From the NCBI GenBank assembly GCA_963700145.1, contig OY969474.1:3648001-3712000 (forward strand): a stretch of DNA of 64,000 bases, written 5' to 3'. Shown here in pieces: positions 8,201-23,233 of the stretch. This DNA comes from an uncultured Acidobacteriota bacterium. Its GTDB lineage: Bacteria > Acidobacteriota > Thermoanaerobaculia > Multivoradales > UBA5704. The notes below the pieces were generated by a model that was not told the origin of the DNA, did not search any database, and worked only from the letters and a program-made list of their open reading frames with translations. How positions within the stretch are numbered: position 1 is the first letter of the stretch; every line of letters begins with the position of its first letter. Made by a program: the position numbers and the translations under genes.

Positions 8201-8626
8201 AGCGCGGCCGATATCGACACTTTGCTGGCGCGCACCAAGCCGCAGGAGAAGGAGGGCGAGAGCGCCGAGGCCAAGGCCAAGCACGACGCCCACAAGGAGC
8301 TGGCGAAGGAGGCCGGGAAGGTCAAGAAGGGGCTCGAGAAGCTCGAGGCGCGCCTCTGGCAGGGCGCCGACACCAAGGGCATCCCCCCGCCCGACGACGC
8401 CCTGTCGCAGATCCAGACCGTGCAGTGGCTCCTGAGCTCGACCTATGACCCGCCGACCGCGGCGCAGACCGCCTACCTGGCGGAGGCCGAGACGACCCTG
8501 CGGACGGCGCTGGCCGAGGTCAACAAGTTCCTCGCCGAAGACCTCGCCGCCTTCCGCAAGAAGCTCCAGGAGAGCGACTTGCGGCTGCTCCAGGAGCTGC
8601 CGCCGCTGGCGATCGAGGTGGAGTAG
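5294..8626 (+). CDS. Secreted VPS10/BNR-repeat beta-propeller protein (glycosyl hydrolase-like)
   Basis: ATG 5294 precedes a signal peptide; IGPAAMSGRVAAV, many SxDGGxTW Asp-boxes, YGGLQDNGSW, C-terminal helical tail. Confidence 0.9.
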   Translation: MIATPCRPFRPAFALAALLLPLPAAAAAGVDPALLAGMKARAIGPAAMSGRVAAVEGVPADPDQLWVGASTGGVWKSTDGGVTFTPVFDDQPVAAIGAVAVSPANPSIVWVGTGEGNPRNSASVGNGVYRSEDGGRTWRHRGLEETERIHRIVLHPTDPDTAWVAALGRAWGENAERGVFKTTDGGATWRKVLYVDERTGAADLAADPSNPQKLFAAMWQYRRWPWFFRSGGPGSGLYVTHDGGTSWRRATAEDGMPAGDLGRIGVAVSRSDPRVVYALVEAAESAFLRSDDGGRSWKKVNTRKDVSPRPFYYADLRVDPDNANRVYRLWSLLDVSNDGGKTWEPLLAWGKVHSDHHALWIHPEDGSFMVNGNDGGVAVTRDRGGSWRYVGNLPLAQFYHVRVDQEVPYNVYGGLQDNGSWKGPGAVWENGGIRNHHWQEVGSGDGFDTVPDPRDARRGYSMSQEGYLVRYDLATGERKSIRPAAPPGVPLRFNWNAGIAIDPFAPDTIYYGSQFVHRSTDRGETWTTISPDLTTNKPEWQRQKQSGGLTPDVTGAENFTTIVALAPSPLERGLLWAGTDDGRLHVTRDGGGTWTSVEKHVKGVPANTWIPHVVPSLHDAGTAFVVFDDHRRSNWTPYVYKTTDYGRTWTSLATKELRGYALAVAQDAVDPDLLFLGTELGLWTSLDGGRSWLPWRHGVPTVSVMDLAVHPRDHDLIVATHGRALYVLDDLAPLRTLSAETMKAPLHLFPASPAVQYMVRQTGSSRFPGHTEFTGENEPYGAVLTYSLNLPGLPHPDTERERQKKEEEREKELARRRSEAPVGEAGEEVPAAVVKEPPAGAEAAAAYGPPGEGPQATIEVRDAAGTLLRTFKGPAKLGVNRAVWDLATDAPKYPGDAPVWWAPGGPEVPPGTYQIKVKQGDHEATGQVEVVPDPRRPFDAEARRANWEAQRRLGRLQDRTAEAVERVRRSAADIDTLLARTKPQEKEGESAEAKAKHDAHKELAKEAGKVKKGLEKLEARLWQGADTKGIPPPDDALSQIQTVQWLLSSTYDPPTAAQTAYLAEAETTLRTALAEVNKFLAEDLAAFRKKLQESDLRLLQELPPLAIEVE

Positions 8627-8629
8627 GGG

Positions 8630-9000
8630 AAATGCACCATTCCGGCGCCGTTTTGCACCATCCGGAGGCCGGAAACGAGGGAACGGGCGCTCGGGAGGCC
8701 CCCTCGGCGCCCGCCGGAGGCGCCGCGGAGAGAGAAATGCACCCCGCGGAGCCTGCGGGGTGCACCGCGGGCGCTGAGGAAGGCGCCGCAGCACCATTTA
8801 TGCACCATTTTCCGCCGGCTTTGCACCATTTTGGTCCCGCGGCAGGCTCCCGAGGCCCCGCGGCGTCCTCCGGAGGTGTCGCGGCAGGCCGCTGAGCCCT
8901 CGTTTGGTGCATAGCGGGCGAAAAGTGGTGCACCTTTCCGTCTGAGGATATATCCTCAGGCGCCGGGGGGTGCATTCCTGGCCCCGCATGGTGCATTTTT
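8630..9000. repeat. Intergenic array of TGCACC/GGTGCA boxes on a strict 21-bp lattice
   Basis: TGCACC at 8633, 8654, 8738, 8801, 8822; GGTGCA at 8759, 8906, 8927, 8969, 8990; all congruent mod 21. Perfect palindrome CTGAGGATATATCCTCAG at 8942-8959. Confidence 0.8.
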
Positions 9001-9019
9001 CCTCCGGAGGAGACATCCC

Positions 9020-9271
9020 ATGCCGACGCGCCGCGCCAACATCTACGTCGACGAAGACCTGATCGCCCGCTGCATGCGCTGCACGGGCCACCGAACGAAG
9101 AAGGCGGTGATCGAGGAGGGGCTCCGGGCCCTCCTCCGCCTCGACGGCCAGCGCCAGGTGCGCGACCTGCGCGGCCGGCTGGTCTGGGAGGACCCGGCGA
9201 CGCAGCCGGCGACCCCGCCGGAGCCCGCGCCGGCGGCGGCGGCAGGGGGCGGCGATGCGGACCCTCGTTGA
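9020..9271 (+). CDS. vapB: Type II antitoxin, VapB family (RHH)
   Basis: RANIYVDEDLIARCMRCTGHRTKKAVIEEGLRALLR..LRGRLVWE; GGAGG RBS; overlaps the PIN toxin gene. Confidence 0.8.
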   Translation: MPTRRANIYVDEDLIARCMRCTGHRTKKAVIEEGLRALLRLDGQRQVRDLRGRLVWEDPATQPATPPEPAPAAAAGGGDADPR

Positions 9272-9668
9272 CGCCTCGGTCTGGATCCCCTACTTCACCG
9301 GCCGCCGCTCGCCGCGCGCCGACTGGCTCGACGCCACCCTCGGCCGCGCCGCCCTCCTCGTCGCCGACCTGACTCTCCTAGAGGTCCTCCGCGGCCTCCC
9401 CGACGCCGCCGACCGCGAGAAGGCCCGCGCGGCCCTCCTAAAGTTCCCGGTGATCCCGACCGGCGGCCACGACGCGGCCCTCAAAGCCGCCGCCCACCTC
9501 CGCGCCCTCACCGCCGCCGGCGCCCCCCAGCCGCCTCTACCGCAGACCCTCATCGCCACCGCCTGCTTGGCGAACGACCTCCACCTCCTCCACGACGACC
9601 CGGCGTACGAGCCCTTCGAGCAGCACCTCGGGCTCGCAACGCCGGGGACGGTGGTGGAGATGTGGTGA
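9255..9668 (+). CDS. vapC: PIN-domain toxin VapC
   Basis: LVDASVWI, EVLRG, LIATAC..LLHDDPAY PIN motifs. The third acidic residue appears replaced (PQTLIA instead of xDxLIA). Confidence 0.8.
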   Translation: MRTLVDASVWIPYFTGRRSPRADWLDATLGRAALLVADLTLLEVLRGLPDAADREKARAALLKFPVIPTGGHDAALKAAAHLRALTAAGAPQPPLPQTLIATACLANDLHLLHDDPAYEPFEQHLGLATPGTVVEMW

Positions 9669-9669
9669 C

Positions 9670-10719
9670 TCAGGGCTTGAGCCGGGCCACCGGGCAGATG
9701 ACCGGCTCGTAGGAGCCGCGGGGGTCGCCGAGGCGGATGGCCTCCAGCAGCCGCGAGCTGAGCTCGTCGCGGTGCACGGCGGTCCAGCCGACGCGCTCGC
9801 TCCCCTCGATGAAGGGGACGGGGCGGAGCCGGTTGGGGGGCCGCATCTTGGCGAGCTCGTAATACATCTCGAAGTGCTTGCCGGCATCCGGCGCGGACGC
9901 GCTCGACTGCGCTTCCGCCGCGTGCGCGGCGTGTCCCTGCGGCACGTTGAGCAACGCCAGCTCGAGCGTGTTGCCGACGGGGCGCAGCGCCGCGGAGCGC
10001 CCCGCGCCGCCGTCCCAGCGCGACTCGCTCAGCTCCAGGACCTCGCCGCTCACGCGGATCTCGGCCGCGACCCAATCGGTGAGCGCCTGGCGGTAGCCGT
10101 TCGTCGGCTGCTCGGCCTTGAGGGACTGGAAGCCCAGCGGCGGCACCTCGTCCTGCAGGCCGACGAGGCGATAGCTCGAGATCTCGCCGGCGCGCAGCCG
10201 CAGGCGGGCGGCGATCAAGCCCTTCTCCGGGCGCGCCCGCAGGACGTCGGGGTCGGCGGCGCCGGCCGCGGGGTCGATCTTCTCCAACTCGGCGACCCAG
10301 CCGAAGTCCTTCCGCTCGGCCGCCGTTCGGGGCAGAGACTCGCCGGCCGACCGCTGGCCGCCGAGGATGGTGAGCGGCGGCGCGGCCAGCTCGCTGCGGC
10401 CCGCGCCGAAGAGCGCGAGGTCGGAGCCGTCGAGCCGCCAGGCGAGGCCGGCGTCGATCGCCTGTGCGAGCGCGTCGCCCGCCGCCTCCGGCGCGAGGTC
10501 GGGGAAGAGGAAGCTCGCCGCGCCGGCGTCGGCGCCGCAGCCGCCGCCGCAGCCCCCCGCCCGCGCCAGCAGCAGGGGCTCGTGCGGCGGCATGCGGGTG
10601 CCGTCCGAGACGGTGTAGCTCTCCGCGGCGTCGAGCAGCAGGACGGTCAGCTCCTTGCCGTCCTCGCTCGGCACGAACGCGATCAAGCCGACGAAGAAGA
10701 TGCGCACGATGAAGTCCAT
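9670..10719 (-). CDS. Hypothetical protein downstream of the CHAT protease
   Basis: 349-aa ORF with GAGGAGG RBS, 21 bp after the CHAT stop; starts MDFIVRIFFVGLIAFVPS, ends YEPVICPVARLKP; no family recognised. Confidence 0.75.
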   Translation of the reverse strand: MDFIVRIFFVGLIAFVPSEDGKELTVLLLDAAESYTVSDGTRMPPHEPLLLARAGGCGGGCGADAGAASFLFPDLAPEAAGDALAQAIDAGLAWRLDGSDLALFGAGRSELAAPPLTILGGQRSAGESLPRTAAERKDFGWVAELEKIDPAAGAADPDVLRARPEKGLIAARLRLRAGEISSYRLVGLQDEVPPLGFQSLKAEQPTNGYRQALTDWVAAEIRVSGEVLELSESRWDGGAGRSAALRPVGNTLELALLNVPQGHAAHAAEAQSSASAPDAGKHFEMYYELAKMRPPNRLRPVPFIEGSERVGWTAVHRDELSSRLLEAIRLGDPRGSYEPVICPVARLKP

Positions 10720-10740
10720 GGGATAGCCCTCCTCGAATGG

Positions 10741-13700
10741 TCAGTTGGGTGGAAACGGCGACGACGCGTGGCCGACGACCTGGAACGGGGCCCAGACAAG
10801 GACCAGCTCGCCTCTAGGGCTCTGCTTGCGAATCACCTCCAGCTGTGCCTCCCGCAGGGCCCTCGCAGCGTCCTCTCCGGCGGCCAGGTGCTCATGGAAC
10901 GACACCAGGAGGCTGGCGGAGGAGGAGTCGCTGACGTTCCAGAGCGTGCCGACCACCGCCGGCACGCCGCCGGCGAGGAACGGCCGCACCAGCGGCGCGA
11001 GGCCCGACGATCCGATCGACCGGCCGCCGGCCGAGCTGCAGGCCGAGAGCACGACGAGGCGCGTCTTCCGCAGCTCCAGCCGGCTCAGTAGCTCTTCGGC
11101 GGTGAGCGCTCCCGAATGGGTCGCCGACCGCGCGAGCAGGAGGACCGACCGCGAGGGGGCGTCGTCGTTGGCGATCGCGTGGCCGGCGAAGTGGACGACG
11201 GTCTTGGCCGCCGCCCGGCGGAGGAAGCTGTCCACCGTCGCCTGCTCCGGCGCGAGCCTCTCGGCCAGCGGCCCGTAAAAGCGCTCGATCCCGGCGACTT
11301 CGCGGCCGGCCCAGGCCAGCGGCTCGAGGTCGCGCGCGATCTCCAGCTCCTTGTCGAAGACCGGATCGCCCACGAGCAGCGCGCTGGCAGGCTCGCCGCG
11401 GAGCTCGCGGTCGCGCAGCAGCGAGAAGACGTAAAGCGTGGCGCTGGGCGCCACTTCGATCGGGAAGTCTTCGACCAAGTGCCGGTTGGTAACCGGGTCG
11501 CGCAGCGCCGCGAGCGGCAGGCCGTGGAGCGCTCGGTCCGGGACGAAAACGAGCCGCTCGACCTTCGAACGGTCGAGCCGGGCGAGCGGGGCTGCGAGCA
11601 GGGCGGCGAAAGCCCGCTCGAGAACCTCGACGACGCTCTCGGTGTCGCCCGTCTCCCTCGCGGCGCGCAGGTCCTCGACCCACTCCGCGATGGTCCGGTG
11701 ATCGATCTTCGGGCGCAGCGACTCGAACTGCTCGCGCCCGACGATCCAGATCACGAGCTGCGGCTCCTCCCCCGTCTCGTCGAGGAAGTAGAAGTCGAGA
11801 AGGAAGGTCCCGGCCGGGAGCTGCGCCTGGACTTCGGTGAGATCGAGCGGCTCGCGCTGCGCGATCAACCGCTCGAATCTTCGAGGCGCCGAGCGGAGCC
11901 GCAAGACGAGGTCCAGCGGCTCCACCGCCCGCGCACCTTCGACATGCGCGAAGGCTTCGGCATCCCGCCCTCGATCTATCAGCAGCCGGACGAGCTGCTG
12001 AGATGCCTCCCCGAAGCGAGAGAAATAAGGCCCCCAGCGCTCCTCGCTCTCCCCCGGCCGTCGGAGGTCCAGGACCCGCTTTTCTTCGGCAGCGACCTCC
12101 TCCATGCCGGCTTTGAGGGCCTCCTCCGCACCGGCCGAAACGCCCGTCCTCCGGTAGGCACGCGCCAGCTGGAAGTGGAGGTTGGCGCGATAGGTCCTGA
12201 ACTGCTCCGGCGGGTAGAGGGCGATGGCTTCGCGCAGGAGCCGGATCGCCGCCTGCGGATCGCTCGCGAGCAGGGCGCTCGCCTCCGCCTCCTTGGCGCG
12301 TGCCAGCAACGCGCTCCTCACACCCTCGTCCACGGCCCGCTCGAAAAACCGGAGGGCCTCCTGGACGTCCGCTCGCGCCTCCTCGTGGCGATCGAGAAAG
12401 GCGAGGAGCGTCGCGCGCCCGCGCAGTGCGATCCCGAGGTTTTGGCGCAGCCCGGGCGCCAGCGGATCGTCCGGCGGCAGCGGCGCCAGGTCCTGCCGGA
12501 GGCGGTCGATCGATTCGGTCTGCATCTGGAGGGCGGTCTCCGGCTCATCGAGGGCGAGGGCCGCCGAGGCGGCTTCGCCCAAGATGTAATGCTGGCGGTC
12601 TGTCTCGACGACGGAGCGGAGGTCGCGGAGCGTCTGCCAGGCCTGCTGCCACGCGAGCTCCCGATCCCCCAGCTCGCGGGCGGCTCCCGCCAGGCGTGCA
12701 CGGACGTTGGCGACGCCCTCGGGGTCGCGGACCCGCCGGTAGGTTGCGAGGGCCTCTTCGTAGACCTCGAGGGCCTCGGGGAAACGACCCTGCGCCACGA
12801 GGCAGAGCCCGCGCGACCAGAGGACCTTCGCCAGCAACGACCCGGAGCCGGAATGCCGCGCCGTCGCCTCGAGAGGCTCGAGCATGGCCAAGACTCGCGG
12901 GCAGTGCGCCTCTCGCAAGCGGCGGTAGAGAGCGGCGGCGGCGCCGATCTCCGCGCCGGTGCGCAGCGGGCTGCCCGCCGCCGCCAGCTCCGCGCCGGCT
13001 TGCCGATATCGTTTCTCCTCGTCCGGCGCGGTGACCTCCCGTGAGAGCTGCCGGGCCGCGCCGAACAGCGCGTGGCCCCTGGCGAGCGCGCGCAGCCTCG
13101 CGGCGTCGCGCCGCCGGTCGGCGTCGGCGACGACCTCGACGACGTCGCGGAGGTAGCGGTCGCCGGTTGCGCGCGCGACCGCGCCGGCGACCTCCCGCGC
13201 TTCGCTCAGACGCTGCGGCGCCTGCGGGTCGCCGGCTTCTGTCATCCGCGCCCAAGCCGGCAGCACCTGCTCTTCGACCCAGCGTTGCGCCGCGCCGGGG
13301 AAGGGCGCGACGAGCTGGGTGACGGCCTCACGATCGCCCAGTCGGACCGCTTCGGCGAGGCGCAGCCGGTTGAGCGGCCAGACCGTCGCGGCCATGCGCA
13401 GGTCCTGGCGCTCGAGCCGGTCGCGGTGGCTCCGCCCCGCCGCGGCCCACCGCGGATCGTCGGGGCGGCCGAGGTAGATCGCCCAGGTGCGGGCGGCTTG
13501 CCACGGCAGTTGGAGCAGCTCTTCGGCGAGCGCCAGGTTGAACAGCGCCTCGGGGGACGGGTCGGGCACCGCGACGGCCTCACGGGCCGCCGCCGCCGCG
13601 CGCAGCAGGTCCGAAGGGCCGTCCTGCCGCCGCGCCCGTACCAGGAAAGCGCCTGCCAGGTCGCTCCAGATGCGGGGATCGGGTGCCGGCTGATGGGCCA

Positions 13701-14058
13701 GTGCGGTCAAGGTCGTGATCGCCCCGTCCAGGTTCGACTGCCGCGCCACCTGCTCCAGCGCTTCGAGGTGTTGCCTTCCGGTCTCATCGCATGCCTCCGA
13801 GGACCTAGACACCGGCGGCGGCGGATTGTGGGAAATCGGACAGATCACCTCGCCGAGGAGCCGCTTGCCGCCGCGCCGCTCCTCGCACCGCTCCCAGGCG
13901 AACCCGCCGGAAAGGCGCGGCTCGACCCAACGCCTCTCGACGAGCTCGCCCAGCCCCTCCTCGAGACAGCGCGTCCGGGGATCGGGCTCCGCACCACACC
14001 CGGCGAGCACGGCAAGGCAACCGATCGCGGCGAGAACCTGCGGAAAAAGATTCGGCAT
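10741..14058 (-). CDS. TPR-CHAT (caspase-like) protease, predicted lipoprotein
   Basis: Lipobox LAGC; TPR helices (ALFNLALAEE, GRFPEALEVYEEAL); CHAT motifs LVFVPDRALHGLPLAAL, VVHFAGHA (His), LVVLSACSS (Cys), VVGTLWNVSD, WAPFQVVG. Confidence 0.92.
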   Translation of the reverse strand: MPNLFPQVLAAIGCLAVLAGCGAEPDPRTRCLEEGLGELVERRWVEPRLSGGFAWERCEERRGGKRLLGEVICPISHNPPPPVSRSSEACDETGRQHLEALEQVARQSNLDGAITTLTALAHQPAPDPRIWSDLAGAFLVRARRQDGPSDLLRAAAAAREAVAVPDPSPEALFNLALAEELLQLPWQAARTWAIYLGRPDDPRWAAAGRSHRDRLERQDLRMAATVWPLNRLRLAEAVRLGDREAVTQLVAPFPGAAQRWVEEQVLPAWARMTEAGDPQAPQRLSEAREVAGAVARATGDRYLRDVVEVVADADRRRDAARLRALARGHALFGAARQLSREVTAPDEEKRYRQAGAELAAAGSPLRTGAEIGAAAALYRRLREAHCPRVLAMLEPLEATARHSGSGSLLAKVLWSRGLCLVAQGRFPEALEVYEEALATYRRVRDPEGVANVRARLAGAARELGDRELAWQQAWQTLRDLRSVVETDRQHYILGEAASAALALDEPETALQMQTESIDRLRQDLAPLPPDDPLAPGLRQNLGIALRGRATLLAFLDRHEEARADVQEALRFFERAVDEGVRSALLARAKEAEASALLASDPQAAIRLLREAIALYPPEQFRTYRANLHFQLARAYRRTGVSAGAEEALKAGMEEVAAEEKRVLDLRRPGESEERWGPYFSRFGEASQQLVRLLIDRGRDAEAFAHVEGARAVEPLDLVLRLRSAPRRFERLIAQREPLDLTEVQAQLPAGTFLLDFYFLDETGEEPQLVIWIVGREQFESLRPKIDHRTIAEWVEDLRAARETGDTESVVEVLERAFAALLAAPLARLDRSKVERLVFVPDRALHGLPLAALRDPVTNRHLVEDFPIEVAPSATLYVFSLLRDRELRGEPASALLVGDPVFDKELEIARDLEPLAWAGREVAGIERFYGPLAERLAPEQATVDSFLRRAAAKTVVHFAGHAIANDDAPSRSVLLLARSATHSGALTAEELLSRLELRKTRLVVLSACSSAGGRSIGSSGLAPLVRPFLAGGVPAVVGTLWNVSDSSSASLLVSFHEHLAAGEDAARALREAQLEVIRKQSPRGELVLVWAPFQVVGHASSPFPPN

Positions 14059-14102
14059 AAGCCCTCCACGGACTCTCGCCCGCGTGCTCTAAACTGTTGC
14101 CG

Positions 14103-14702
14103 GTGAGTCGGCAAGTGAACGACGACTGGTTCGCGGATCTCTACCAACGTTTTTACAGCTCTATTTTCGCCTACTTCGTGCGCATCGGATTTCCGCGCGA
14201 GGACGCGAGAGACCTCGCACAAGAGACATTCTTGCGTGTCTATCGAGGCATGGAGCGCTATGAAGGCCGCGGCGACTTCGCCTTTCTGAAGAGGACGGCG
14301 GTCAACGTCGGCATCAACGCGATCCGCGACAGAAAGACCGCCAAGCGGCAGGCCGTCGTCGTCCCGCTCGACGAGCTGCCGCACATCGCCGCCGGCGCCG
14401 AGAACCCGGCCGGCGAAGCGCCGCCGACGCCCGAGGCGGATGCCGCGCAGCACGAGGAGGCCGTCGCGCGCCGAAGCTGGCTGAAACAGGCGATCGCCGC
14501 GCTGCCGGCCGCACAACGCGATTGCCTGCTGCTGCGGCTCGACGGCCTCAAGTACCGTGAGATCGCTCGCGTGATGGGCGTCCCGATCGATACAGTGAAG
14601 TCGCGGCTCCACGAGGCGCGCAGGACGCTGAGCGAGGGGTACCGCGCGGGTGCCGGAGGGCTCGAGTGGCCGCCGGAGCTCGAGGACGACGACCATGAGT
14701 AG
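14103..14702 (+). CDS. ECF RNA polymerase sigma factor
   Basis: Region 2 DARDLAQETFLRVYR; region 4 LPAAQRDCLLLRLDGLKYREIARVMGVPIDTVKSRLHEAR. Start uncertain (14097, 14103 or 14115). Confidence 0.92.
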   Translation: MSRQVNDDWFADLYQRFYSSIFAYFVRIGFPREDARDLAQETFLRVYRGMERYEGRGDFAFLKRTAVNVGINAIRDRKTAKRQAVVVPLDELPHIAAGAENPAGEAPPTPEADAAQHEEAVARRSWLKQAIAALPAAQRDCLLLRLDGLKYREIARVMGVPIDTVKSRLHEARRTLSEGYRAGAGGLEWPPELEDDDHE

Positions 14703-15465
14703 GAAGAGCGACTGGGCCGCCGCTTACCGCGAGCTCCTCGCCGACGGCCGGCAGCGGCTCGGCGAGCCGCCGACGACCGAGGAGATCGTGGCCTACGCGC
14801 ACGGCGAGCTCCCGCCGGCCGAAGCGAGTCGCGTCCAGGAGTACCTGGCTCTTCATCCCGAGCTGGCGCGCGCTCTCGCCGAGCCGGTGCCGGAGTCGGA
14901 TCGAGGGGAGCCCGGCGCCCCCGACTTCCTGTCCGCCGAGGAGATCGCGAGCGACTGGACCGCCCTCCAGGCTCGGCTCGAGCCGGCGCGTCCGCGCCGG
15001 CCCGGCGTCTGGCGCCCCCTCGCCCTGGCGGCCTCGCTCCTCGCCATCGTCTCGAGCGGTCTGTACCTGCAGGCGCAGCGCGAAGTGAGCCGACTCGCGC
15101 GGGAGCTGCGGGAGCCGCGCGCCAACCCCGAGCATCGCATGCTCCTGCCCGACGGGGACCGCGGCGCCGCAGAGCCCGACATCCTGCTGCCGGCGGCGGC
15201 CGATCAATTCCTCCTCAAGCCGGCGCTCGTCGGACACCCGGACTTCGCTGACTATCGGCTCAAAATCATCGACATCAGCGGTCGTGAGCCGCGCGTGGTT
15301 TGGGACCGGACGGGGCTCCGGCGCCTCAGCGACGACACTTTCGAGCTCTGGGTGACGCGCGATTTTCTCTCGTCCAAGGAGTACCGGCTCGAGCTCTACG
15401 GCATCGACGAGAGCCGCAAGGAAACGCTGCTCGCCAAATACACCCTGCGCCTACCGCCGCGGTAG
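14695..15465 (+). CDS. Single-pass anti-sigma factor with degenerate ZAS-like N-terminus
   Basis: ATG 14695 overlaps the sigma 3' end; EEIVAYAHGELPPAEASRVQEYLALHPEL; TM LALAASLLAIVSSGLYL; short coiled coil; beta-rich C-terminal domain. Confidence 0.78.
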   Translation: MSRKSDWAAAYRELLADGRQRLGEPPTTEEIVAYAHGELPPAEASRVQEYLALHPELARALAEPVPESDRGEPGAPDFLSAEEIASDWTALQARLEPARPRRPGVWRPLALAASLLAIVSSGLYLQAQREVSRLARELREPRANPEHRMLLPDGDRGAAEPDILLPAAADQFLLKPALVGHPDFADYRLKIIDISGREPRVVWDRTGLRRLSDDTFELWVTRDFLSSKEYRLELYGIDESRKETLLAKYTLRLPPR

Positions 15466-15468
15466 AGC

Positions 15469-16044
15469 TCAAGGAGCTCCGGCCGCGGGCCGCGCTTCCC
15501 GCGCGTAGGCATCGAGCAGGGGGTCCAGCGGGCGCACATCGGCCTCCTGCGGTGGGACGGCCCGGTCGACGAACCGGCGGAAGAATTCGGCCGCTTCCTT
15601 CTGATAGCTCTCGGGCGAGCCGGGCGCCGGGGATCCGAGGCGGCGCAGCATCGCGCGCGCGTACGCCAGCGAGAAATCGCGTAGGTCGAACGCCGCGCCA
15701 GCCCGCGTCTGCGACCGCGCCTCCTCTTCGACGTACCGTCTCATCTCCGCCAAGTGCCAGAAGACGAGCCCCTCGTCATTGGCCGCCGAGAGCGCCTGAG
15801 TGCGCTCCAGTTGCTGCTGCAGCGTCGTGCGTTCGTTCTTCAATTGGGCGACTTCGTTGCGGAGCTGCTGCACGAGCGCCTGCTGCGTCTGCAGCTCGCT
15901 CTCCTTCTCGAACACCGGCTTCACGCTGTAGACGTACGCATAGACGCCGAAGGCGAGCGCCGCCATGGTGGCGGCCTTTTGGAAGATCTCGAGCCAGGAA
16001 TCCTCGCCGAGGAAGGTGCGCCGGAAGGGCTCTCGCGTCGCCAT
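15469..16044 (-). CDS. Hypothetical single-TM coiled-coil protein
   Basis: ATG 16044; TM AATMAALAFGVYAYVYSV followed by a Q/E-rich heptad region. Confidence 0.65.
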   Translation of the reverse strand: MATREPFRRTFLGEDSWLEIFQKAATMAALAFGVYAYVYSVKPVFEKESELQTQQALVQQLRNEVAQLKNERTTLQQQLERTQALSAANDEGLVFWHLAEMRRYVEEEARSQTRAGAAFDLRDFSLAYARAMLRRLGSPAPGSPESYQKEAAEFFRRFVDRAVPPQEADVRPLDPLLDAYAREARPAAGAP

Positions 16045-16135
16045 TCTTGCGCTTATAAGAACACGAGAACCGGAGCTCTGTTGGTCCTCCCCGGCGCTTT
16101 GACCCCTTCCGCCTCCGGGCGTGTCTTTCTTCCGC

Positions 16136-18469
16136 ATGAGGATCAACGGCCGGCGGAAGCTGTGCGTCCTGGTCGCCGCTTTGGGTCTGTTCGTGTGCGG
16201 GCGCGGCGACCCGCCCCTGACCGCGGCCGTCGTGAGCCCGCGGCGCCACGCATTCCTGGTCGGGATCGACGACTACGAGGGGCCGCCCGGGGACCGCCTC
16301 AAGGGCGCGGCGGACCGCGGCTGGCGCGACCTCGAAGGAGCAGTCAACGACGTGCACCTGCTGCGCGAGATGCTCGTCGCCCGCTACGGCTTCGCGGTGC
16401 GTGAGGTCGCGACCCTGACCGACCGCGCCGCCACCCGCGCGGCGATCCTGCGCGGGATCGAGACCCACCTCGTGCGGCAGGCCGGCCCCGGCGACGTCGT
16501 CCTCTTCTACTTCTCGGGTCACGGATCGCAGGTGCGCAACTCACGCTCCGACGAGCCGGACGGCCGGGACGAGACGCTGGTGCCGGCCGACTCCCGCGCC
16601 GGCGCGCCCGACATCCGGGACAAGGAGCTGCGGCGGCTGTTCAACCGCATCCTCGACCAGGGCGCCCGCCTGACCGTCGTCGTCGACACCTGTCACAGCG
16701 GCTCGGTCGCGCGCGGTCTGCCCAGCGGCGAGCTCCCCCGGGGCATCGACCTGGACCCGCGGGACGTCGCGGACGGCGCTCCGCACGGCCCGCGGCCGGA
16801 GGATCGTGGGGCGCTCGTCCTCGCAGCGGCCGAGGACTTCGACCGCGCCTGGGAGAGCTGGGACGAAGCGGGCAAGCCGCACGGCGCGTTCTCGCTGGCC
16901 CTGGTGCGGGCGATGCGGGACGCCCTCCCGGGGGAACCGGCGGAGGAGACCTTCCTCCGCGCGCGCGCCCGCCTCCAGGCCGAGCGACGCTTCCAGGAGC
17001 CCGTCCTGACCGGCAATCCGGCGGCGCGGCTCGCGCCGCTGCTGGGGTCGCGGCCGGGCGCGCGGAAAGACCGTGCCGTGGTCGCCGTCGAGCGCGTCGA
17101 GCGCAGCGGCACGGTGGTCCTCCAGGGAGGTTGGGCGCACGGGCTGGCGGTCGGCAGCCAGTTGCGGGTCAGCGTACCGGGGCAGGGCGAAGGGGTGCGG
17201 CTCGTCGTCACCGCAATGCAGGGGCTCGGCCGCTGCGAAGCCCGCGTCGCGCCGTCGCCGTCGCGGCGCGCGGCGCCGGCGGCCCCCCTGGCCGGGGCGC
17301 TGGCGGAAGTCGTCGGCTGGGAGGTGCCGCCGATGCCGCCGCTCCGCGTCTGGATGCCGCGCGCCGAGGGGGGCGCCTTCGACGCGGCCGTCCGGCTGGC
17401 CGGCGAGCTCGCCGCCGCGGCGCCGCGCCGCCGCATCGGCTGGGTGAGCGACCCGACCGAGGTGACGCCGACGCACCTCCTCCGCTGGCGCGCCGAAGGC
17501 TGGGAGCTTCTCGGGCCGCGAGGCCTGCCGGCGCGTCTCGGACCGGCGCCCGACGTCGCCTCGGTGCTGGCGCAGATCGACGCTCCCCGCTCCGCTCTCT
17601 TCGTGCAGCTGCCGGCGCCGGCGGACCTGCGGCTCGAGGTCGGCCCGGGCACGGGCCAGGAGGGGGTGGCGCCGGCGGCGGAGCCCGAGCAGGCCGACTA
17701 CGCCCTGGTCGGCCGGCTCGCGGGTCGCACGGCGGAGTACGCCTGGGTGCGTCCCGAAGTCGGAGCCGCCGACCGGCGGCGGAGCGGGCTGCCGTTGCGC
17801 AGCGACTGGGTCGAGCTCGCGCCCCGGCGCTCGGCCGAGGCGGCCCTCGATCTCGCACGGGCGGTGCTGCGGCTGCGCCGGGTCCAAGGGTGGTATCGCC
17901 TCGAGTCGCCGGTGACGGAGGCCTTCGCGTACCGCTTGGCGCTGGCGCGGCCCGACGACCTGCGCGAGGTGAGCGATGGCGTGCTGCGTGGAGGCGAAAG
18001 GCTCGGCCTCGCCTTGCGCTTGCGGGCGCCGCAGCCGGGCGCGGTGCGCCCCCGCTACGTCTACGCCTTCATGATCGACAGCCACGGCCGGAGCGTCTTG
18101 CTCTTCCCCGCCACAGGACCGCTCGAGAACCGCTTCCCGACGCACCGACCGGGAGCGGCCTCCGAGCCGCCCGCCACGATCCCGCTGGGATCGCCGGACC
18201 TCTTCACGGTGAGCGAGCCGTTCGGCGTGGACACCTATTTCCTGTTGACCAGCGAAGAGCAGCTCCCGTACCCGTGGGTGCTCGAGTGGGAGGGGGCGCG
18301 AACGCGGGAGCCGCGCACGCTGTCGCCGCTCGAGGAGCTGGTGTTCGCCACCAGCGGGGTCGCCCGCTCGGCCGCGGTGCAGGTGCCGTCGAGCTGGTCG
18401 CTCGAGCGCAGGGTCTTCGAATCGGTGCCCGCCCAAGCCGCCGGACGAGGAAGTCGAGATGGCGCGTAA
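16136..18469 (+). CDS. Exported caspase-family (peptidase C14) protein with long C-terminal extension (possibly DUF4384-like)
   Basis: Hydrophobic N-terminus; AFLVGIDDY, LEGAVNDV, FYFSGHGSQ (His), VVDTCHSG (Cys), HGAFSLAL, QEPVL; C-terminal YVYAFMIDSHG..LLFP..EPFGVDTYFLLTS. Confidence 0.9.
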   Translation: MRINGRRKLCVLVAALGLFVCGRGDPPLTAAVVSPRRHAFLVGIDDYEGPPGDRLKGAADRGWRDLEGAVNDVHLLREMLVARYGFAVREVATLTDRAATRAAILRGIETHLVRQAGPGDVVLFYFSGHGSQVRNSRSDEPDGRDETLVPADSRAGAPDIRDKELRRLFNRILDQGARLTVVVDTCHSGSVARGLPSGELPRGIDLDPRDVADGAPHGPRPEDRGALVLAAAEDFDRAWESWDEAGKPHGAFSLALVRAMRDALPGEPAEETFLRARARLQAERRFQEPVLTGNPAARLAPLLGSRPGARKDRAVVAVERVERSGTVVLQGGWAHGLAVGSQLRVSVPGQGEGVRLVVTAMQGLGRCEARVAPSPSRRAAPAAPLAGALAEVVGWEVPPMPPLRVWMPRAEGGAFDAAVRLAGELAAAAPRRRIGWVSDPTEVTPTHLLRWRAEGWELLGPRGLPARLGPAPDVASVLAQIDAPRSALFVQLPAPADLRLEVGPGTGQEGVAPAAEPEQADYALVGRLAGRTAEYAWVRPEVGAADRRRSGLPLRSDWVELAPRRSAEAALDLARAVLRLRRVQGWYRLESPVTEAFAYRLALARPDDLREVSDGVLRGGERLGLALRLRAPQPGAVRPRYVYAFMIDSHGRSVLLFPATGPLENRFPTHRPGAASEPPATIPLGSPDLFTVSEPFGVDTYFLLTSEEQLPYPWVLEWEGARTREPRTLSPLEELVFATSGVARSAAVQVPSSWSLERRVFESVPAQAAGRGSRDGA

Positions 18470-20270
18470 CCGTGCGCTCGCGACGGTTGCCGTTTTGGCC
18501 TTCCTGCTCGGATCGGAAGCAAGCGCCCTGACCAGGGAGGGTCTGGACCTCGTGCTGCTCGTCGATCGATCGCAGAGCATGGCCAGGCAGGGCCTCGGGC
18601 CTTCCGGCGATCCTGACGACGTCCGCGACCTCCTGCTCTCTCTCGTCGTCGGCCTCGTGGGCCGGAGCTCCGATGTCAATCAGATGAGCCATCGCATCGC
18701 CGTGGTGAGCTTCGGGTCCAAGGCGCGCGTCGATCTCCCGCTGTCCGCAGTGCGAGGAGAGGACGTCCCAGGCTTGCGCCAGGCCATCGGGACGATCCGC
18801 TCGCCGGACAGCCTCGGCAACACCGACTTCCTCTCCGCCTTCCTGGCGGCGGCGGACGTGCTCGGCCCTTCGGCAGCCGCCACGCAGCGCAGGCGCGCGA
18901 TCCTGCTCATCACTGACGGTGTGCCTTACGGACGCCGACGCAATCCCGACGTGGACCTCCAGGAGCTTCGCAGCTCCCTGCCTTCCGTCGGCCCGTCCCC
19001 GCAGATCGCGCTCCACGTCCTCCTGACACCTTCTTCGGGACACACGCGGGAGCGTTACCGACGCATTTGGCGGGAGGTCGCCGAGGGGCGGGTCCACGAG
19101 CTTGCCGGCGACCGCACCGAAGTCCTGACCACGCTGCACGAGGCGGTGGCGCACGTCCTGGGGACCCGCTTCGAGGAGAGCCGTTCCGCGCCGGAGGGAG
19201 GAGGGATCGAGACCGTCGTCCTGCCGCCCTATCTCGAGCTCGTGGTCTTCGACGTCGTCGGTGGAGCATCGGGGAAGGAGGTGGAGATCTTCGCTCCCGG
19301 CACTCCCCACCGGCCGCTCCTCGCCGGCGCTCGGGGTGTCGAGGAGGTCCGTCTGGGCCGACTCATCCGCACGGTGGCCGTCCGCCGGCCCAGCATGGGC
19401 CGCTGGAGCTTCCACAAGCCGGCTGCGGAGGCGAGGGTGAAGGTTCTCTCTCAGCAGTTCTTCCCGCGCGGGATGCTGCTCGAGCCGGGGAGCGACCGGC
19501 GAATCCGGCAGCATGGACGAATCTCCCTCGCCTATCGCTTGATCGACCGGGGAGGCTCTCCCCTGCGAGAGATCCCCGGCTATCCCCTGTCGCTCAGCCT
19601 TTCGCTGGTGAGACCGGACGGACGACGTTCTGCCTTGCCGATGAGGCGTCGAACGTCCGGGGTGTTCAGGTCGCGGCAGGAAGCCGCGTGCGATCTCTCC
19701 GGCCGCTACTGGACCGAAGCGGAGGTCGTCACCCGGGATCTCGAGGACCGCAGGGTCGAGGTCTTCCGCGACCACTGGTCGGGTTTTGCGGTCCATCGCG
19801 CAAGGCGCATCGATTGCCGGGTGACGGCGCCCCGGCCGCGCCAGTTGGTGTCGTTCGGCAACCTGTTTCGCCGGCGCGTCGCGACCCGGCTCGAATGTCT
19901 CGACGATGCCGCGCGGCCGGTCGATCTCGAGGCGGTCGTGAGAGGGCCGCTCGATCGGCTCTTCGCGCCGGCCTTGTCGCGGGAGGGGCGGCGGACCGCG
20001 GCGGCGCTCGACCTCGCTTCTCTCGGCCAAGGCGTGCTCGCGGGCTCGCTGCGGGGCGCGGCGGCACCCGGCTCTTACCGGCTGGAGCTGAAGGTTGACG
20101 AGGCGCGGCTCGCCGGCGATTACAGCATCCGCGTCGTGCCGCCGGCCGTACACTTCGTGAGCTACCTGAGCTGGAGCGACTACGTGCAATTCAGCCTCTT
20201 GGGCGTCGGGCTCGTGCTGCCGCTTGCCAAGATCTCGAGGCGGTACACTCGAGGAGCCCGCCGAACGTGA
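18459..20270 (+). CDS. Exported von Willebrand factor A domain protein with C-terminal membrane anchor
   Basis: Signal ending ASA; MIDAS DLVLLVDRSQSM, GNTDF, ILLITDG; C-terminal hydrophobic segment with basic tail. Confidence 0.85.
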   Translation: MARNRALATVAVLAFLLGSEASALTREGLDLVLLVDRSQSMARQGLGPSGDPDDVRDLLLSLVVGLVGRSSDVNQMSHRIAVVSFGSKARVDLPLSAVRGEDVPGLRQAIGTIRSPDSLGNTDFLSAFLAAADVLGPSAAATQRRRAILLITDGVPYGRRRNPDVDLQELRSSLPSVGPSPQIALHVLLTPSSGHTRERYRRIWREVAEGRVHELAGDRTEVLTTLHEAVAHVLGTRFEESRSAPEGGGIETVVLPPYLELVVFDVVGGASGKEVEIFAPGTPHRPLLAGARGVEEVRLGRLIRTVAVRRPSMGRWSFHKPAAEARVKVLSQQFFPRGMLLEPGSDRRIRQHGRISLAYRLIDRGGSPLREIPGYPLSLSLSLVRPDGRRSALPMRRRTSGVFRSRQEAACDLSGRYWTEAEVVTRDLEDRRVEVFRDHWSGFAVHRARRIDCRVTAPRPRQLVSFGNLFRRRVATRLECLDDAARPVDLEAVVRGPLDRLFAPALSREGRRTAAALDLASLGQGVLAGSLRGAAAPGSYRLELKVDEARLAGDYSIRVVPPAVHFVSYLSWSDYVQFSLLGVGLVLPLAKISRRYTRGARRT

Positions 20271-21511
20271 GAGCCATGCGACGATTCGGTCTCTGCGCGG
20301 GGATCGCCTGCGCGCTCCTTTCGATCCATTGCACCGCGATCGCCGGAGACCTCGCGTTCACTCCCTCGCCGGAGCTCTCGGCCGGTATCTTCATCGGCGT
20401 CGAAAAGTTCTCCTACGACTTCTCGCTGGCGGACGTCCGCTTTGCCACGAATGACGCGGTCGACCTCGCCTACTCGCTCTCCATCGAGCGCCAGCTTCTC
20501 GAACCCAAACGAGTGCTTCTGCTGCTTGCCGGGGAGCCGGGCCCCGCAGCGCAAGCGCGCCTCGCCGCGCTGACCTCGGCCGGCGCCACGAGACTGGAGG
20601 CGACGCAGGCTTACATCTATTCCCTCGTGAAACAGCAGGCCGAGTCGGTGAGGGAAGGCGGTGTTCTCGTGGTCTTCATCGCGACGCACGGCTTCGCCGA
20701 AGGCCCGGAGCACCTGCTGATGGCTGGAGATTCGATCCTGACCTTTCGGACCGGCATCACGGCCGAAAGGCTCCTGCAAGCCATGCAGTTGGAGCTGGGC
20801 GGCCAGCGTCTCCTCCTCATCGACGCGTGCCGTGAGGAACTGGAGAAGCCCTCCCGCCGTGGCTCTGGGGCTGGCGAAAAGCCGGATCGCCGATCGGCCA
20901 TGCGCAACGAGCTGCTCAACGCGGTGACGGCGAACAGAGGGTACACGGTGTTTTCGGCCGCAAGCCCTGGCGAATTCGCGTACCCTGAGGGGGTCGCGAA
21001 CCTTGATGGGAACGGATACTTTACGAAGAGCATCGTCGATGGTCTGGAATGCGGAGGCTTGCGTGCCAAAGGGCGCGCCGTGAGCTGGTCGACCCTTAGC
21101 ACCTCGGTGAAGGCGGAGGTCGCTGCCCGGACGAAAGGCCAGCAGCAGCCGGATCTCCGCGTCGGCGGCGGATTTCGCGACTTCCAGTTCCCTGCTTGTG
21201 GCGCATCGGCGCCACCGCGTCCAGTGAGCCCTTCGCTCAGCCCGGAGATGTTGCAGACGATCCGGGAGGCGCGGAACCTTGCGGCCACCGGCAGCGCCGA
21301 GAACGTCGAGAAGAGCTTCCGCATCTATCGACAGATCTTCGAGGAGCTGCCACCCGCGACTCTGGCCACCCTGAATCAAGCCCTGGTCGCGCGGGCGCAG
21401 CAACTGGAACCCGACAGTCGGGCAGACGCGGGCGTCCGGCTCTACGAGCAGCTCCTGGAGCCCTTGCTCGCGCTAGCCGACAAATCTCACCAGCGGGAGC
21501 GTTTCCCATGA
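20267..21511 (+). CDS. Second exported caspase-family (peptidase C14) protein
   Basis: GTGA overlap; signal peptide; IFIGVEKF, FATNDAV, FIATHG (His), LIDACR (Cys), SAASPGEFA, NGYFTKSI, QQP; helical C-terminus. Confidence 0.85.
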   Translation: MRAMRRFGLCAGIACALLSIHCTAIAGDLAFTPSPELSAGIFIGVEKFSYDFSLADVRFATNDAVDLAYSLSIERQLLEPKRVLLLLAGEPGPAAQARLAALTSAGATRLEATQAYIYSLVKQQAESVREGGVLVVFIATHGFAEGPEHLLMAGDSILTFRTGITAERLLQAMQLELGGQRLLLIDACREELEKPSRRGSGAGEKPDRRSAMRNELLNAVTANRGYTVFSAASPGEFAYPEGVANLDGNGYFTKSIVDGLECGGLRAKGRAVSWSTLSTSVKAEVAARTKGQQQPDLRVGGGFRDFQFPACGASAPPRPVSPSLSPEMLQTIREARNLAATGSAENVEKSFRIYRQIFEELPPATLATLNQALVARAQQLEPDSRADAGVRLYEQLLEPLLALADKSHQRERFP

Positions 21512-21978
21512 TCTGGAAAGCTTCGGTCCCCGTCACCTGTCTTCTTGCCCTTGTCGGTGCAGTCGTGCCGGCAGGCAACCGCAGCGGCGAACCAGGCTGT
21601 CGCGTCGAGATCACGGAGCCACGAGTCGGACAGGAAGTGGCTGGCAGGATCTCTGTGAAGGGAACCGGCTCACGGCCTCCAGGCACCTACCTCTGGATCT
21701 TTCTGCGGCGGTGGGACTTCGAGCCCCGCTGGTGGCCTCAGGGCGAGGCACTGTGGGACGAGGAGAAGCAGGAATGGCGCGGGTTCGCGACCTTGGGCAA
21801 GCGGGTGGATATCGGATGGGAATTTGATCTGACCGTCGCCGGGGTCGGACCGGAAGATCATCTGCAACTCACCGATTACATGACCCGAGGGATGGAGACG
21901 GGAAGGTTTCGGCCTATCCCGCTGCCATCGGCTGTCTGTGCTTCTGCTCCGATTCGAGTCATGAAAGGGAGCAAATAG
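21508..21978 (+). CDS. Small exported beta-rich (Ig-like?) hypothetical protein
   Basis: ATGA overlap with the caspase stop; signal peptide; VEITEP..ISVKGTG..YLWIFLR..WWPQG; two Cys in the mature part. Confidence 0.7.
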   Translation: MIWKASVPVTCLLALVGAVVPAGNRSGEPGCRVEITEPRVGQEVAGRISVKGTGSRPPGTYLWIFLRRWDFEPRWWPQGEALWDEEKQEWRGFATLGKRVDIGWEFDLTVAGVGPEDHLQLTDYMTRGMETGRFRPIPLPSAVCASAPIRVMKGSK

Positions 21979-22016
21979 TCCACCGGCGCTGGTTCGGCGT
22001 CCCCCGATGCGGGCTC

Positions 22017-22931
22017 TTGCTCCTTACGCTTGCGCCGCTGAGCGCCTGCGTCGATCACTATCTCGTCCACCCCCGCCGGCCGCCGGTGGGCGTGGTGGCG
22101 CACAGCGAGGCGATGGTGCGCGGGAAGCTGTTGATCCGGCTGGAGTGGGCGCGGCCGATCGGCGAGGGGCGATACCCGGCGGTGATCGTCCATCCGGAGG
22201 CGGGGCACCTGGCGCGAGAGATGCGCGGCGTGGTGCGCGACCTTGCGGCGCGTGGCTACGTGGCGGTGGCGGCGGATTACCGGCGGGCGGTCGGGAGCAC
22301 GTACCGCGACACGCTCTTCACCTGGCGCGACCCCGGCGACCCGCGCGCCGTCTTCGACCGCGTGCGCGGCGACCGCCGCGTCGACCCCGCGCGCATCGGC
22401 CTCCTCGGCTTCTCGCAAGGCGGCGTCTATAGCCTGGTCATCGCCGCCGAGACGGGCGGCGCGGCGGCGGTCGTCGCCTACTACCCAGTGACCGACTTCG
22501 AGCGCTGGCTCGACGACCCGTCGCGCCGCCGGCGCGAGCGGTGGGTGTTCCGCCTGATCCGCCGGCACTTAGTCCGCCAGTCGGGCGCCGCGACCGAAGA
22601 GGAGTTCCGCACCCTCCTCGCCCGCGCCTCGCCCCTCCGCCACGCCGACCGCATCCGCGCCCCGGTCCTCTTGGTGCACGGTACCCGCGACCGCTCCGCG
22701 AGCGTCGAGGAATCCCGCCGCCTAGCCGCCCGCCTCCGAGAGCTCGGCCGCCCCGTCGAGCTGCTGGAGGTCCCGGACGCCGGCCACGTCTTCAACTTCC
22801 GCAACCGCGAGAAGGCCGCGCTGGCCTGGGAGGCCACGGTCGCCTTCCTCGACCGGCACGTGAAGGTGAAGTTCGCCTACTCTCCGACCTCTCCCAGCGC
22901 GGCCCGGACCAATTGGCGCCGGGCCTGCTGA
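22017..22931 (+). CDS. Alpha/beta hydrolase (dienelactone hydrolase / S9-like), probable lipoprotein
   Basis: GFSQGG nucleophile elbow, HGTRD, DAGHVF triad; LSAC lipobox. Start uncertain. Confidence 0.82.
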   Translation: MLLTLAPLSACVDHYLVHPRRPPVGVVAHSEAMVRGKLLIRLEWARPIGEGRYPAVIVHPEAGHLAREMRGVVRDLAARGYVAVAADYRRAVGSTYRDTLFTWRDPGDPRAVFDRVRGDRRVDPARIGLLGFSQGGVYSLVIAAETGGAAAVVAYYPVTDFERWLDDPSRRRRERWVFRLIRRHLVRQSGAATEEEFRTLLARASPLRHADRIRAPVLLVHGTRDRSASVEESRRLAARLRELGRPVELLEVPDAGHVFNFRNREKAALAWEATVAFLDRHVKVKFAYSPTSPSAARTNWRRAC

Positions 22932-23233
22932 TCGTCCAACACCGCTTCGTACGAAGGCCGCCGGCGCGCCAGCGCCAGCACCTGGGCTTCGCCGGCTCCC
23001 AAGTCCCAGGCTGCGATCTCTTCCGGCAGCGGTACGTCCGGTTCTACGCGAAGCCAACTGGCCTCGCCGAGTGTCGTGAGCTCCGGATGAAGGTCCTTAC
23101 CGGCGAGCACCTCGCGGAGGACGGCCGCAGGGACGACCACCCCGGCAGCGAGCCCGGGCAGAAGGAAGAGCCGGTCGATGCGCGACAGGAAGATCAGCGG
23201 TGAGGCGTTGACGACGAGCGATCTCTCATCCAC
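22877..23233 (-). CDS. PIN-domain protein, DUF3368-like; apparently shortened (possible pseudogene)
   Basis: VVNASPLIFL, VPAAVLREV, LGAGEAQVLALA, VLDDQQARR; the GTLG-containing segment usual for the family is absent. Confidence 0.7.
   Translation of the reverse strand: MDERSLVVNASPLIFLSRIDRLFLLPGLAAGVVVPAAVLREVLAGKDLHPELTTLGEASWLRVEPDVPLPEEIAAWDLGAGEAQVLALARRRPSYEAVLDDQQARRQLVRAALGEVGE

Follow-up and report, generated by a model that had tools for sequence, protein, structure and literature searches.

A conserved cassette of a CHAT lipoprotein protease, an ECF sigma/anti-sigma pair and exported caspases in an uncultured Acidobacteriota bacterium

We analyzed a cluster of nine genes, designated A to I, which fills positions 9670-21978 of a 64,000-nucleotide stretch (the window) of contig OY969474.1 from an uncultured Acidobacteriota bacterium. 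The cluster encodes a TPR-CHAT lipoprotein protease (B), a sigma factor of the extracytoplasmic function (ECF) type (C) with a transmembrane anti-sigma factor (D), two exported caspases (F and H), a von Willebrand factor A (vWA) protein (G) and three further proteins (A, E and I). Because the window has a G+C content of 72%, the genes were called from third-position GC together with the list of open reading frames (ORFs). The Pfam scan assigned no family to A, D, E, or I. A first-pass annotation, made from the letters of the sequence, had proposed an undescribed proteolytic signaling system of the cell envelope at this locus. The arrangement it described, proteases of the caspase clan around an ECF sigma factor and its transmembrane anti-sigma factor, together with a vWA protein and genes without a recognized family, was confirmed by Pfam and NCBIfam matches and by the transmembrane segment of D (Table 1).

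Table 1. Genes of the cassette and the promoter-like motif copy found in the window.
Feature	Position	Strand	Length (residues)	Description
A	9670-10719	-	349	Family and fold unknown; always directly 3' of a CHAT gene
B	10741-14058	-	1105	TPR-CHAT lipoprotein protease; His960, Cys1007, lipobox Cys21
C	14097-14702	+	201	ECF sigma factor; Pfam Sigma70_r2, r4_2, ECF; NCBIfam sigma70-ECF
D	14695-15465	+	256	Single-pass anti-sigma factor; weak NCBIfam match, transmembrane segment 109-127
E	15469-16146	-	225	Hydrophobic segment and coiled coil; local accessory
F	16121-18469	+	782	Exported C14 caspase; conserved middle region; C-terminal DUF4384-like domain
G	18459-20270	+	603	Exported vWA protein; DxSxS metal ion-dependent adhesion site (MIDAS); hydrophobic C-terminal tail
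H	20267-21511	+	414	Exported C14 caspase; helical C-terminal tail
I	21508-21978	+	156	Small exported protein, family unknown
Strict CCACA-N14-GTGTCT copy	13807-13831	-		Within B, sense, ~230 nucleotides past the B start

The three clan-CD proteases possess intact His/Cys dyads, as had been claimed from the motifs in the translations. B is matched by Pfam CHAT with an E-value of 1.2e-57 as well as by TPR, and its catalytic motifs read HFAGH and LSACS. The dyad H960/C1007 is conserved across 72 sequences, and both residues together with the lipobox residue Cys21 are invariant in 19/19 orthologues. F and H match Pfam Peptidase_C14 with E-values of 2.2e-22 (80.3 bits) and 5.5e-8 (33.2 bits), respectively, at a cut-off of 21.4 bits. 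The dyads H134/C191 of F (motifs SGHG and DTCH) and H141/C188 of H (motifs ATHG and DACR) are invariant in 50 and 36 sequences, respectively. The DUF4384 match of F, at 22 bits, falls below its cut-off. Export signals were judged by eye and from hydropathy. By this assessment, ordinary signal peptides of the Sec type are present in the orthologues of F and H, and the N-termini of G, H, and I are hydrophobic, so that the export or lipoprotein-like N-termini ascribed earlier to all three proteases were borne out.

The best PDB relatives of the sigma factor C are SigE, SigH, and SigW. The start of D overlaps the stop of C by 8 nucleotides. D shows weak NCBIfam anti-sigma matches (E 1.6e-4) and a single transmembrane segment (residues 109-127), located between a cytoplasmic N-terminal anti-sigma region and an outer domain of ~130 residues. 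It belongs to a small family, comprising 14 proteins in a search of 5.8 billion proteins. In the juxtamembrane region of D we identified the motif L150-x-PDG-x-R156-G157, in which R156 is conserved in 58/58, G157 in 56/58 and L150 in 55/58 sequences. Proteases of clan CD such as separase and the metacaspases cleave after arginine, and the conserved R156-G157 pair is therefore a candidate cleavage site.

The AlphaFold2 model of B has a mean predicted local distance difference test (pLDDT) score of 87 and a predicted template modeling (pTM) score of 0.85. In this model, the signal peptide is followed by an N-terminal tether of low order (residues 21-86), a scaffold made up entirely of helices (residues 87-746) and the CHAT domain (residues 751-1096). 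Foldseek comparison with the PDB returned, as the top matches over the whole length, the entries 8rw5 and 8rot_A of the anti-sigma factor DdvA (E 4e-18 and 1.5e-17), with TM-scores of 0.56 when normalized to the query and 0.68/0.66 when normalized to the targets; separase and Csx29 rank below. B and C are divergent, with 38 bp between their start codons in the window. The head-to-head arrangement of B and the C-D operon is found in 24/25 loci, where the gaps between the chosen starts are mostly 9-50 bp and several of the genes overlap. In the commoner locus type (L035-L054), the putative sigma -35/-10 elements lie antisense to the B codons just past the lipobox, which may explain a conserved "EDT...W" peptide in the 5' end of B.

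Protein A is encoded directly 3' of B. Its model is confident (pLDDT 85), and no fold match was found in the PDB. The family of A comprises 1029 cluster representatives at E<=1e-3, and ten distant or longer members of it gave no match in Pfam. The five distant A-like genes inspected, three from other genomes and two paralogues from this one, all come immediately after a CHAT gene. Among 301 sampled genomes of the phylum, those in which the A family was detected all belong to the class of the window (five genomes at E<=1e-10). The N-terminus of A is highly conserved and modeled as β-strands, and homologues align from residue 1; we therefore read A as a protein without a cleavable signal peptide. 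The invariant residues H46, C57, C61, and C342 could form a zinc site or disulfides.

To follow the cassette in other genomes, we collected 24 genome loci, four anchored on D and 20 on A, and searched them by tblastn with the nine window proteins. With A as the anchor, 21/151 genomes of the class gave matches, and 17 of these 21 belong to a single family represented by 35 genomes; 20 regions were taken. In a metagenome scan, also anchored on A, we kept 80 of the 175 matches and tallied only the 35 loci of at least 12 kb, the other 45 being too short. In 24/24 genome loci, A, B, C, and D are found together and are invariably arranged as D←C← →B→A; F is adjacent in 23/24, the exception ending at a contig edge. 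Each of the 35 long metagenome loci contains D, C, B, A, and F. H is present in 11/24 genome loci and in 24/35 long metagenome loci, and G gave one partial match only among the genome loci. At protein identities of 35-50%, the order and the content persist, and B and D are encoded separately and on opposite strands throughout (24/24 genome and 35/35 long metagenome loci). The gene F follows A in most loci; in the window and two close relatives, it stands on the other side, after D and E. Synteny of the window with the two close relatives ends at the A end and the F end.

Judged by this distribution, the fixed core of the cassette is D, C, B, A, and F, with H as a frequent member, G bound to a subtype, and E and I local. 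The nine genes are thus unequal members of the system: beside the five core genes, H is frequent only, G is restricted to a subtype, E to close relatives and I to this genome. The neighborhood comparison, with its co-occurrence in 24 and 35 loci, agrees with the view of a conserved unit independent of clustered regularly interspaced short palindromic repeats (CRISPR). We likewise found no cas, SAVED, STAND, or MoxR/AAA+ gene at the locus or within ~10 kb flanks, as previously noted.

The genes of the caspases and their neighbors are tightly packed. G overlaps both the stop of F and the start of H, and the ATG of I overlaps the stop of H; from these overlaps we consider F-G-H-I as one operon. 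G matches Pfam VWA and VWA_2. It has four full-length orthologues in the 151 class genomes, each lying downstream of an A gene, at a distance of 5.7-7.4 kb, within a cassette copy of the type B→A→F→(second CHAT or H)→G. To judge from these placements, the vWA protein is a subtype accessory. The sensing role once suggested for it found no support. The two close relatives carry a second TPR-CHAT gene and a gene for a different, 897-residue vWA protein after F. Among the related loci, just the two close relatives L001 and L002 (2/24 loci) contain E, which has only weak DivIC-like Pfam matches below the cut-off; E probably starts at the Met codon at 16044. The sole relative found for I is a paralogue beside an H paralogue at 1.750 Mb of the same genome, and I has no match in the 24 related loci. 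At the H/I end, positions 20001-22000 of the window have a G+C content of 65%, compared with ~72% elsewhere, and synteny with the close relatives stops after F, so that G-H-I may be a later addition.

A segment of ~800 bp (window 15890-16689), which runs from the 5' end of E through the intergenic region into the 5' part of F, shares 97-99% identity with L002, as against 60-90% for the remaining cassette. This patch suggests recent recombination or gene conversion. We had considered a regulatory explanation for the near-identity of the E-F intergenic region and rejected it, because the region belongs to the 800-bp patch, for which recombination is more likely.

A two-part (dyad) search upstream of the sigma genes yielded the motif CCACA-N14-GTGTCT, which we counted with the strict pattern CCAC-N14-16-[GT]TGTCT. 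The 24 loci (429 kb) hold 51 strict copies, in comparison with 2 in the reversed sequence and an average of 2.7 (maximum 6) over 50 triplet shuffles, a ~19-fold excess. Of the 51 copies, 12 precede C, 12 precede A, 5 precede F and 6 precede H; a further 3 lie inside B, and 13 are located elsewhere or lack a downstream ORF. The copies belonging to C lie ~100 bp upstream, and those belonging to A ~100-190 bp upstream, within the 3' end of B. In 60 loci, we located 133 sites with a downstream ORF, namely A (37), C (32), F (15), H (13), B-internal (6), and others (30), among which are DUF4236 genes (6 loci) and vWA genes (4 loci). At the A-proximal copy, the serine codon is TCT in 45/64 B genes vs. 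6.3% gene-wide, and the histidine codon is CAT in 61/64 B genes vs. 42% gene-wide; this codon bias points to selection on the DNA itself. The motif recurs in four unrelated contexts, both coding and non-coding.

An element containing CACA, a spacer and then GTC resembles ECF promoters, and we infer that the motif represents the promoter recognized by this sigma factor. No sense-oriented copy was found upstream of the start of B in the 24 or the 60 related loci, indicating that B is not wired as an output of the sigma factor. Sigma factor C appears to switch on the exported caspases F and H. In this respect the first-pass reading is corrected: the motif puts F, H, and A on the output side of the sigma factor rather than upstream.

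The copy listed in Table 1 is the only strict one in the window and also the sole hit of the position weight matrix (PWM) with a score of at least 12 in the 64 kb. An early sense copy within B, ~100-250 nucleotides into the gene, is present in 8/8 loci of the window type. It is strict in five of them (the window, L001, L002, L004, and L141) and at the PWM level in the other three (L140, L142, and L143). The peptide encoded at this position varies between loci, and the DNA motif is kept. In the window, the copy falls in a low-confidence linker of B (residues 76-87), between the N-terminal tether and the folded body starting from residue 87.

The closest studied counterpart in fold is the DdvS/DdvA system of Myxococcus xanthus, which comprises an ECF sigma factor and a transmembrane anti-sigma factor fused to a periplasmic TPR-CHAT module and controls an island of CRISPR and the cyclic oligonucleotide-based antiphage signaling system (CBASS), as described in the portions of the study cited here (PMC11506125; PDB 8rot, 8rw5). 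In those portions, CHAT cleavage followed by RseP intramembrane proteolysis is only proposed for DdvA, and the authors looked for fused forms only (PMC11506125). The periplasmic location of this TPR-CHAT module also contradicts the earlier statement that the known CHAT-sigma systems are all cytoplasmic (PMC11506125). Both systems have an ECF sigma gene next to the anti-sigma gene, here with the 8-nucleotide overlap, and B shares with DdvA the scaffold-TPR-CHAT module and the His-Cys dyad; DdvA is the best fold match of B in the PDB, and the proposed logic of cleavage is common to both. Unlike DdvA, in which the anti-sigma factor and TPR-CHAT form one chain, D and B are encoded by separate genes on opposite strands. 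DdvA contains a CHCC zinc anti-sigma domain, whereas D has no zinc motif, and neither B nor D matches DdvA in sequence. No CBASS/CRISPR island is adjacent to the cassette within ~10 kb; the apparent regulon consists of A and two exported caspases.

Since the fold of B best matches that of DdvA, we read the locus as a split form of that system. The balance of probability tips modestly towards a split-gene, CRISPR-independent relative of DdvS/DdvA that has been extended by a protease output. B would then be a periplasmic sensor protease expressed independently of the sigma factor. Upon binding of a signal by its TPR scaffold, B would cut the outer part of D, likely at the juxtamembrane Arg156-Gly157, and an RseP-type site-2 protease would subsequently free the sigma factor C. 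C would transcribe the regulon marked by the motif, namely its own operon, A, F, and H, and in sublineages also vWA and DUF4236 genes. F and H would act as effectors on envelope or extracellular proteins, and B may also mature F and H. We infer all of the cleavage steps, the signal and the targets. A more elaborate version describes an extracytoplasmic caspase cascade coupled to transcription: an initiator-like CHAT lipoprotein would sense a cue in the periplasm and free the sigma factor, which would induce executioner-like secreted caspases and A, whose fold matches no solved structure. In the sublineage of the window, an additional promoter inside B would give a second, cytoplasmic protease form as a working partner of A; we advance this version tentatively and with little confidence.

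The claim of novelty has to be adjusted accordingly. Full-text literature searches revealed no published description of the split cassette; they turned up the DdvS/DdvA work of 2018 and 2024, the SAVED-CHAT/PCaspase preprint, a Craspase (Csx29) paper, surveys of cyanobacterial orthocaspases and a type III-E (Csx29) preprint. The terms CHAT, caspase, and TPR are absent from the main text of the ECF classification paper, in the portion cited (PMC7826278). DdvA of Myxococcus, with its periplasmic TPR-CHAT anti-sigma factor, is nevertheless kin, so that "undescribed" holds for the split cassette and not for the principle. What sets the cassette apart is the partner A, together with two exported caspases as apparent targets of the sigma factor.

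Three other groups of known systems share parts of the arrangement. In the type III-B SAVED-CHAT/PCaspase system of Haliangium ochraceum, a CHAT protease cleaves and activates a caspase, according to the parts of the report cited here (bioRxiv 10.1101/2023.06.23.546230). There, too, a sigma factor is encoded together with a CHAT protease and a C14 caspase. That system is cytoplasmic, triggered by cyclic oligoadenylate via SAVED, and cas-linked, whereas the present locus has neither SAVED nor cas genes, contains three proteases with export signals and a membrane anti-sigma factor, and B has TPR. In the Craspase module (Cas7-11/Csx29/Csx30/Csx31/CASP-sigma), as outlined in the same parts, a TPR-CHAT protease frees an ECF-type sigma factor by cutting a partner protein (bioRxiv 10.1101/2023.06.23.546230). 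Csx29 is among the fold matches of B, and the partner that is cut belongs to no known family. Craspase differs in being RNA-guided and cytoplasmic without a membrane step, and A has no detectable likeness to any known family. The control of sigma-E by RseA/DegS/RseP comprises a single-pass anti-sigma factor, a periplasmic site-1 cut and an M50 site-2 protease. The single-pass anti-sigma factor has its counterpart in D, and an RseP-type M50 gene is present in the genome; however, the proposed site-1 protease is the clan-CD TPR-CHAT lipoprotein of the cassette and not a serine protease of the DegS type. The conflict systems of vWA and MoxR differ from the cassette, which has no MoxR AAA+ partner at the locus or in its flanks.

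Several points weigh against a split relative of DdvS/DdvA with a protease output. Sequence searches of the PDB with B, both single-sequence and profile-based, gave only weak TPR/separase matches and no DdvA; the profile of D gave nothing meaningful, and D has no sequence match to DdvA or any PDB chain. The N-terminal region of D lacks a His/Cys zinc motif. Protein A shows no evident signal peptide, even though it is the tightest partner of an exported protease, which the model leaves unexplained. The counts of loci are not independent, since many of the loci are related and each was bound to contain its anchor gene. Several copies of the motif lie in coding DNA, where protein constraint could contribute to their conservation. 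The regulon reading leans mainly on relatives of 35-50% identity, because the window has a single strict copy, which lies within B. No strict copy precedes C or the F-G-H-I operon in the window, and the degenerate copies upstream of its C and F are low-scoring candidates only, within the range of the shuffles. Genome-wide, the motif is not enriched, with 10 matches vs. 12 for the reversed control.

The sigma/anti-sigma pair could also sense envelope stress alone, through the outer domain of D or a housekeeping site-1 protease, with B, F, H, and A as co-located clients or effectors and B not acting on D. D does have its own conserved outer domain of ~130 residues. Moreover, CHAT and A genes are paired without a sigma gene at 0.311 and 1.997 Mb of the same genome, from which it follows that B-type proteases have work not involving an anti-sigma factor. 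However, A, F, and H are preceded by the sense motif whereas the start of B is not, and B is not wired as an output; its fold is that of DdvA, where the module is fused to the anti-sigma factor; and B has been kept head to head with the C-D operon (24/25 loci). We give this explanation a minor but appreciable chance. The known relatives are linked to defense, since DdvS/DdvA controls a CBASS-CRISPR island (PMC11506125) and SAVED-CHAT activates PCaspase (bioRxiv 10.1101/2023.06.23.546230), both in the cited parts of these sources. The cassette might accordingly be an anti-phage or abortive-infection device, in which a signal derived from an invader sets off the switch and the cell's envelope is destroyed by its own exported caspases once these are induced. 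It is multi-copy with variable accessory genes, the same genome holds a type III-B locus with a paralogue of F, and F matches the "caspase" model of PADLOC (5e-24). That match reflects a generic caspase domain; PADLOC, which gave only a weak BovA match for B, recognized no defense system at the locus. Within ~10 kb, there is no cas, CBASS, SAVED, STAND, or other defense gene, the neighbors being housekeeping genes and VapBC. Exported proteases could equally target competitors, prey or the surface proteins of the cell itself, and we deem a defense device unlikely.

The early-B motif raises the question of two isoforms, where a sigma-type promoter inside B in the window-type loci would produce a tether-less cytoplasmic TPR-CHAT protein together with A, both working inside the cell, and the lipoprotein form would be only a sensor. 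The occurrence of this motif in 8/8 window-type loci (five strict, three at the PWM level), the differing peptides encoded there, the position of the window copy in a low-confidence linker just before the folded body at residue 87 and the lack of a signal peptide in A are in line with this scheme. In the commoner locus type, however, a putative promoter of its own serves A, and none is located inside B. We consider two isoforms quite doubtful. The genome is rich in such genes, with 15 CHAT genes, 7 C14 caspases, and 33 sigma-70 region-2 matches, and the cluster might in principle consist of chance neighbors. We rejected chance adjacency as having next to no probability, because order and content are kept in 24/24 and 35/35 loci at 35-50% protein identity and a shared motif precedes the genes of the cassette.

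To our knowledge, DdvA is the only studied caspase-fold protease that gates a sigma factor across a membrane. If the wiring of the split cassette is right, it would constitute an envelope protease cascade with a transcriptional step in bacteria, and A would be the entry to a family of some thousand sequence clusters without a known fold or function. Since the split places the protease B and its presumed substrate D on two proteins, the key step becomes directly testable.

On the left, the cassette is flanked by a sortilin/BNR gene and a VapBC pair and, on the right, by genes that encode an alpha/beta hydrolase, a protein of the UPF0175 family and an ABC transporter. The VapB/VapC pair (window 9020-9668) lies between the sortilin-like gene and the cassette and is absent from this place in the close relative L001. 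Rfam identified no family in the window region 8500-23000.

The genome consists of a single contig of 5.46 Mb. By genome coordinates, 5/7 of its caspases lie less than 10 kb from one of the CHAT genes above the cut-off, and 5/33 of the sigma matches less than 6 kb from one. The A-like genes at 0.311 and 1.997 Mb are located directly 3' of CHAT lipoprotein genes. An H/I-like pair (1,749,752-1,751,524) stands beside an 1105-residue CHAT gene; the H paralogue is 51% identical, and a strict CCACA-N14-GTGTCT copy lies 59 bp upstream of this paralogous operon, which may be controlled by the sigma factor of the window or a sister sigma factor. The type III-B CRISPR locus at 1,060,001-1,080,000 encodes Cmr2, Cmr3, RAMP proteins, Cas6, CHAT-SAVED, an ECF sigma factor with a 1360-residue TPR-CHAT protein directly after it, and an F-like C14 caspase, to which F is 34% identical over the caspase domain. 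In its gene content, this locus is an acidobacterial example of the SAVED-CHAT/PCaspase arrangement.

Two further regions of the genome carry CHAT genes in other settings. The segment 1,995,800-2,003,200 is an island of 56% G+C in the 72% G+C genome, next to ribosomal protein and EF-Tu genes, and holds a CHAT lipoprotein gene, an A-like gene and two further genes, one of which resembles an M23 peptidase gene by eye; the island was likely acquired horizontally. The CHAT gene at 3.127 Mb lies 2.6 kb from a sigma gene and a gene for a 344-residue anti-sigma factor with a HxxxCxxC-type motif (3,124,001-3,134,000), which is a second, different CHAT-sigma module of the genome.

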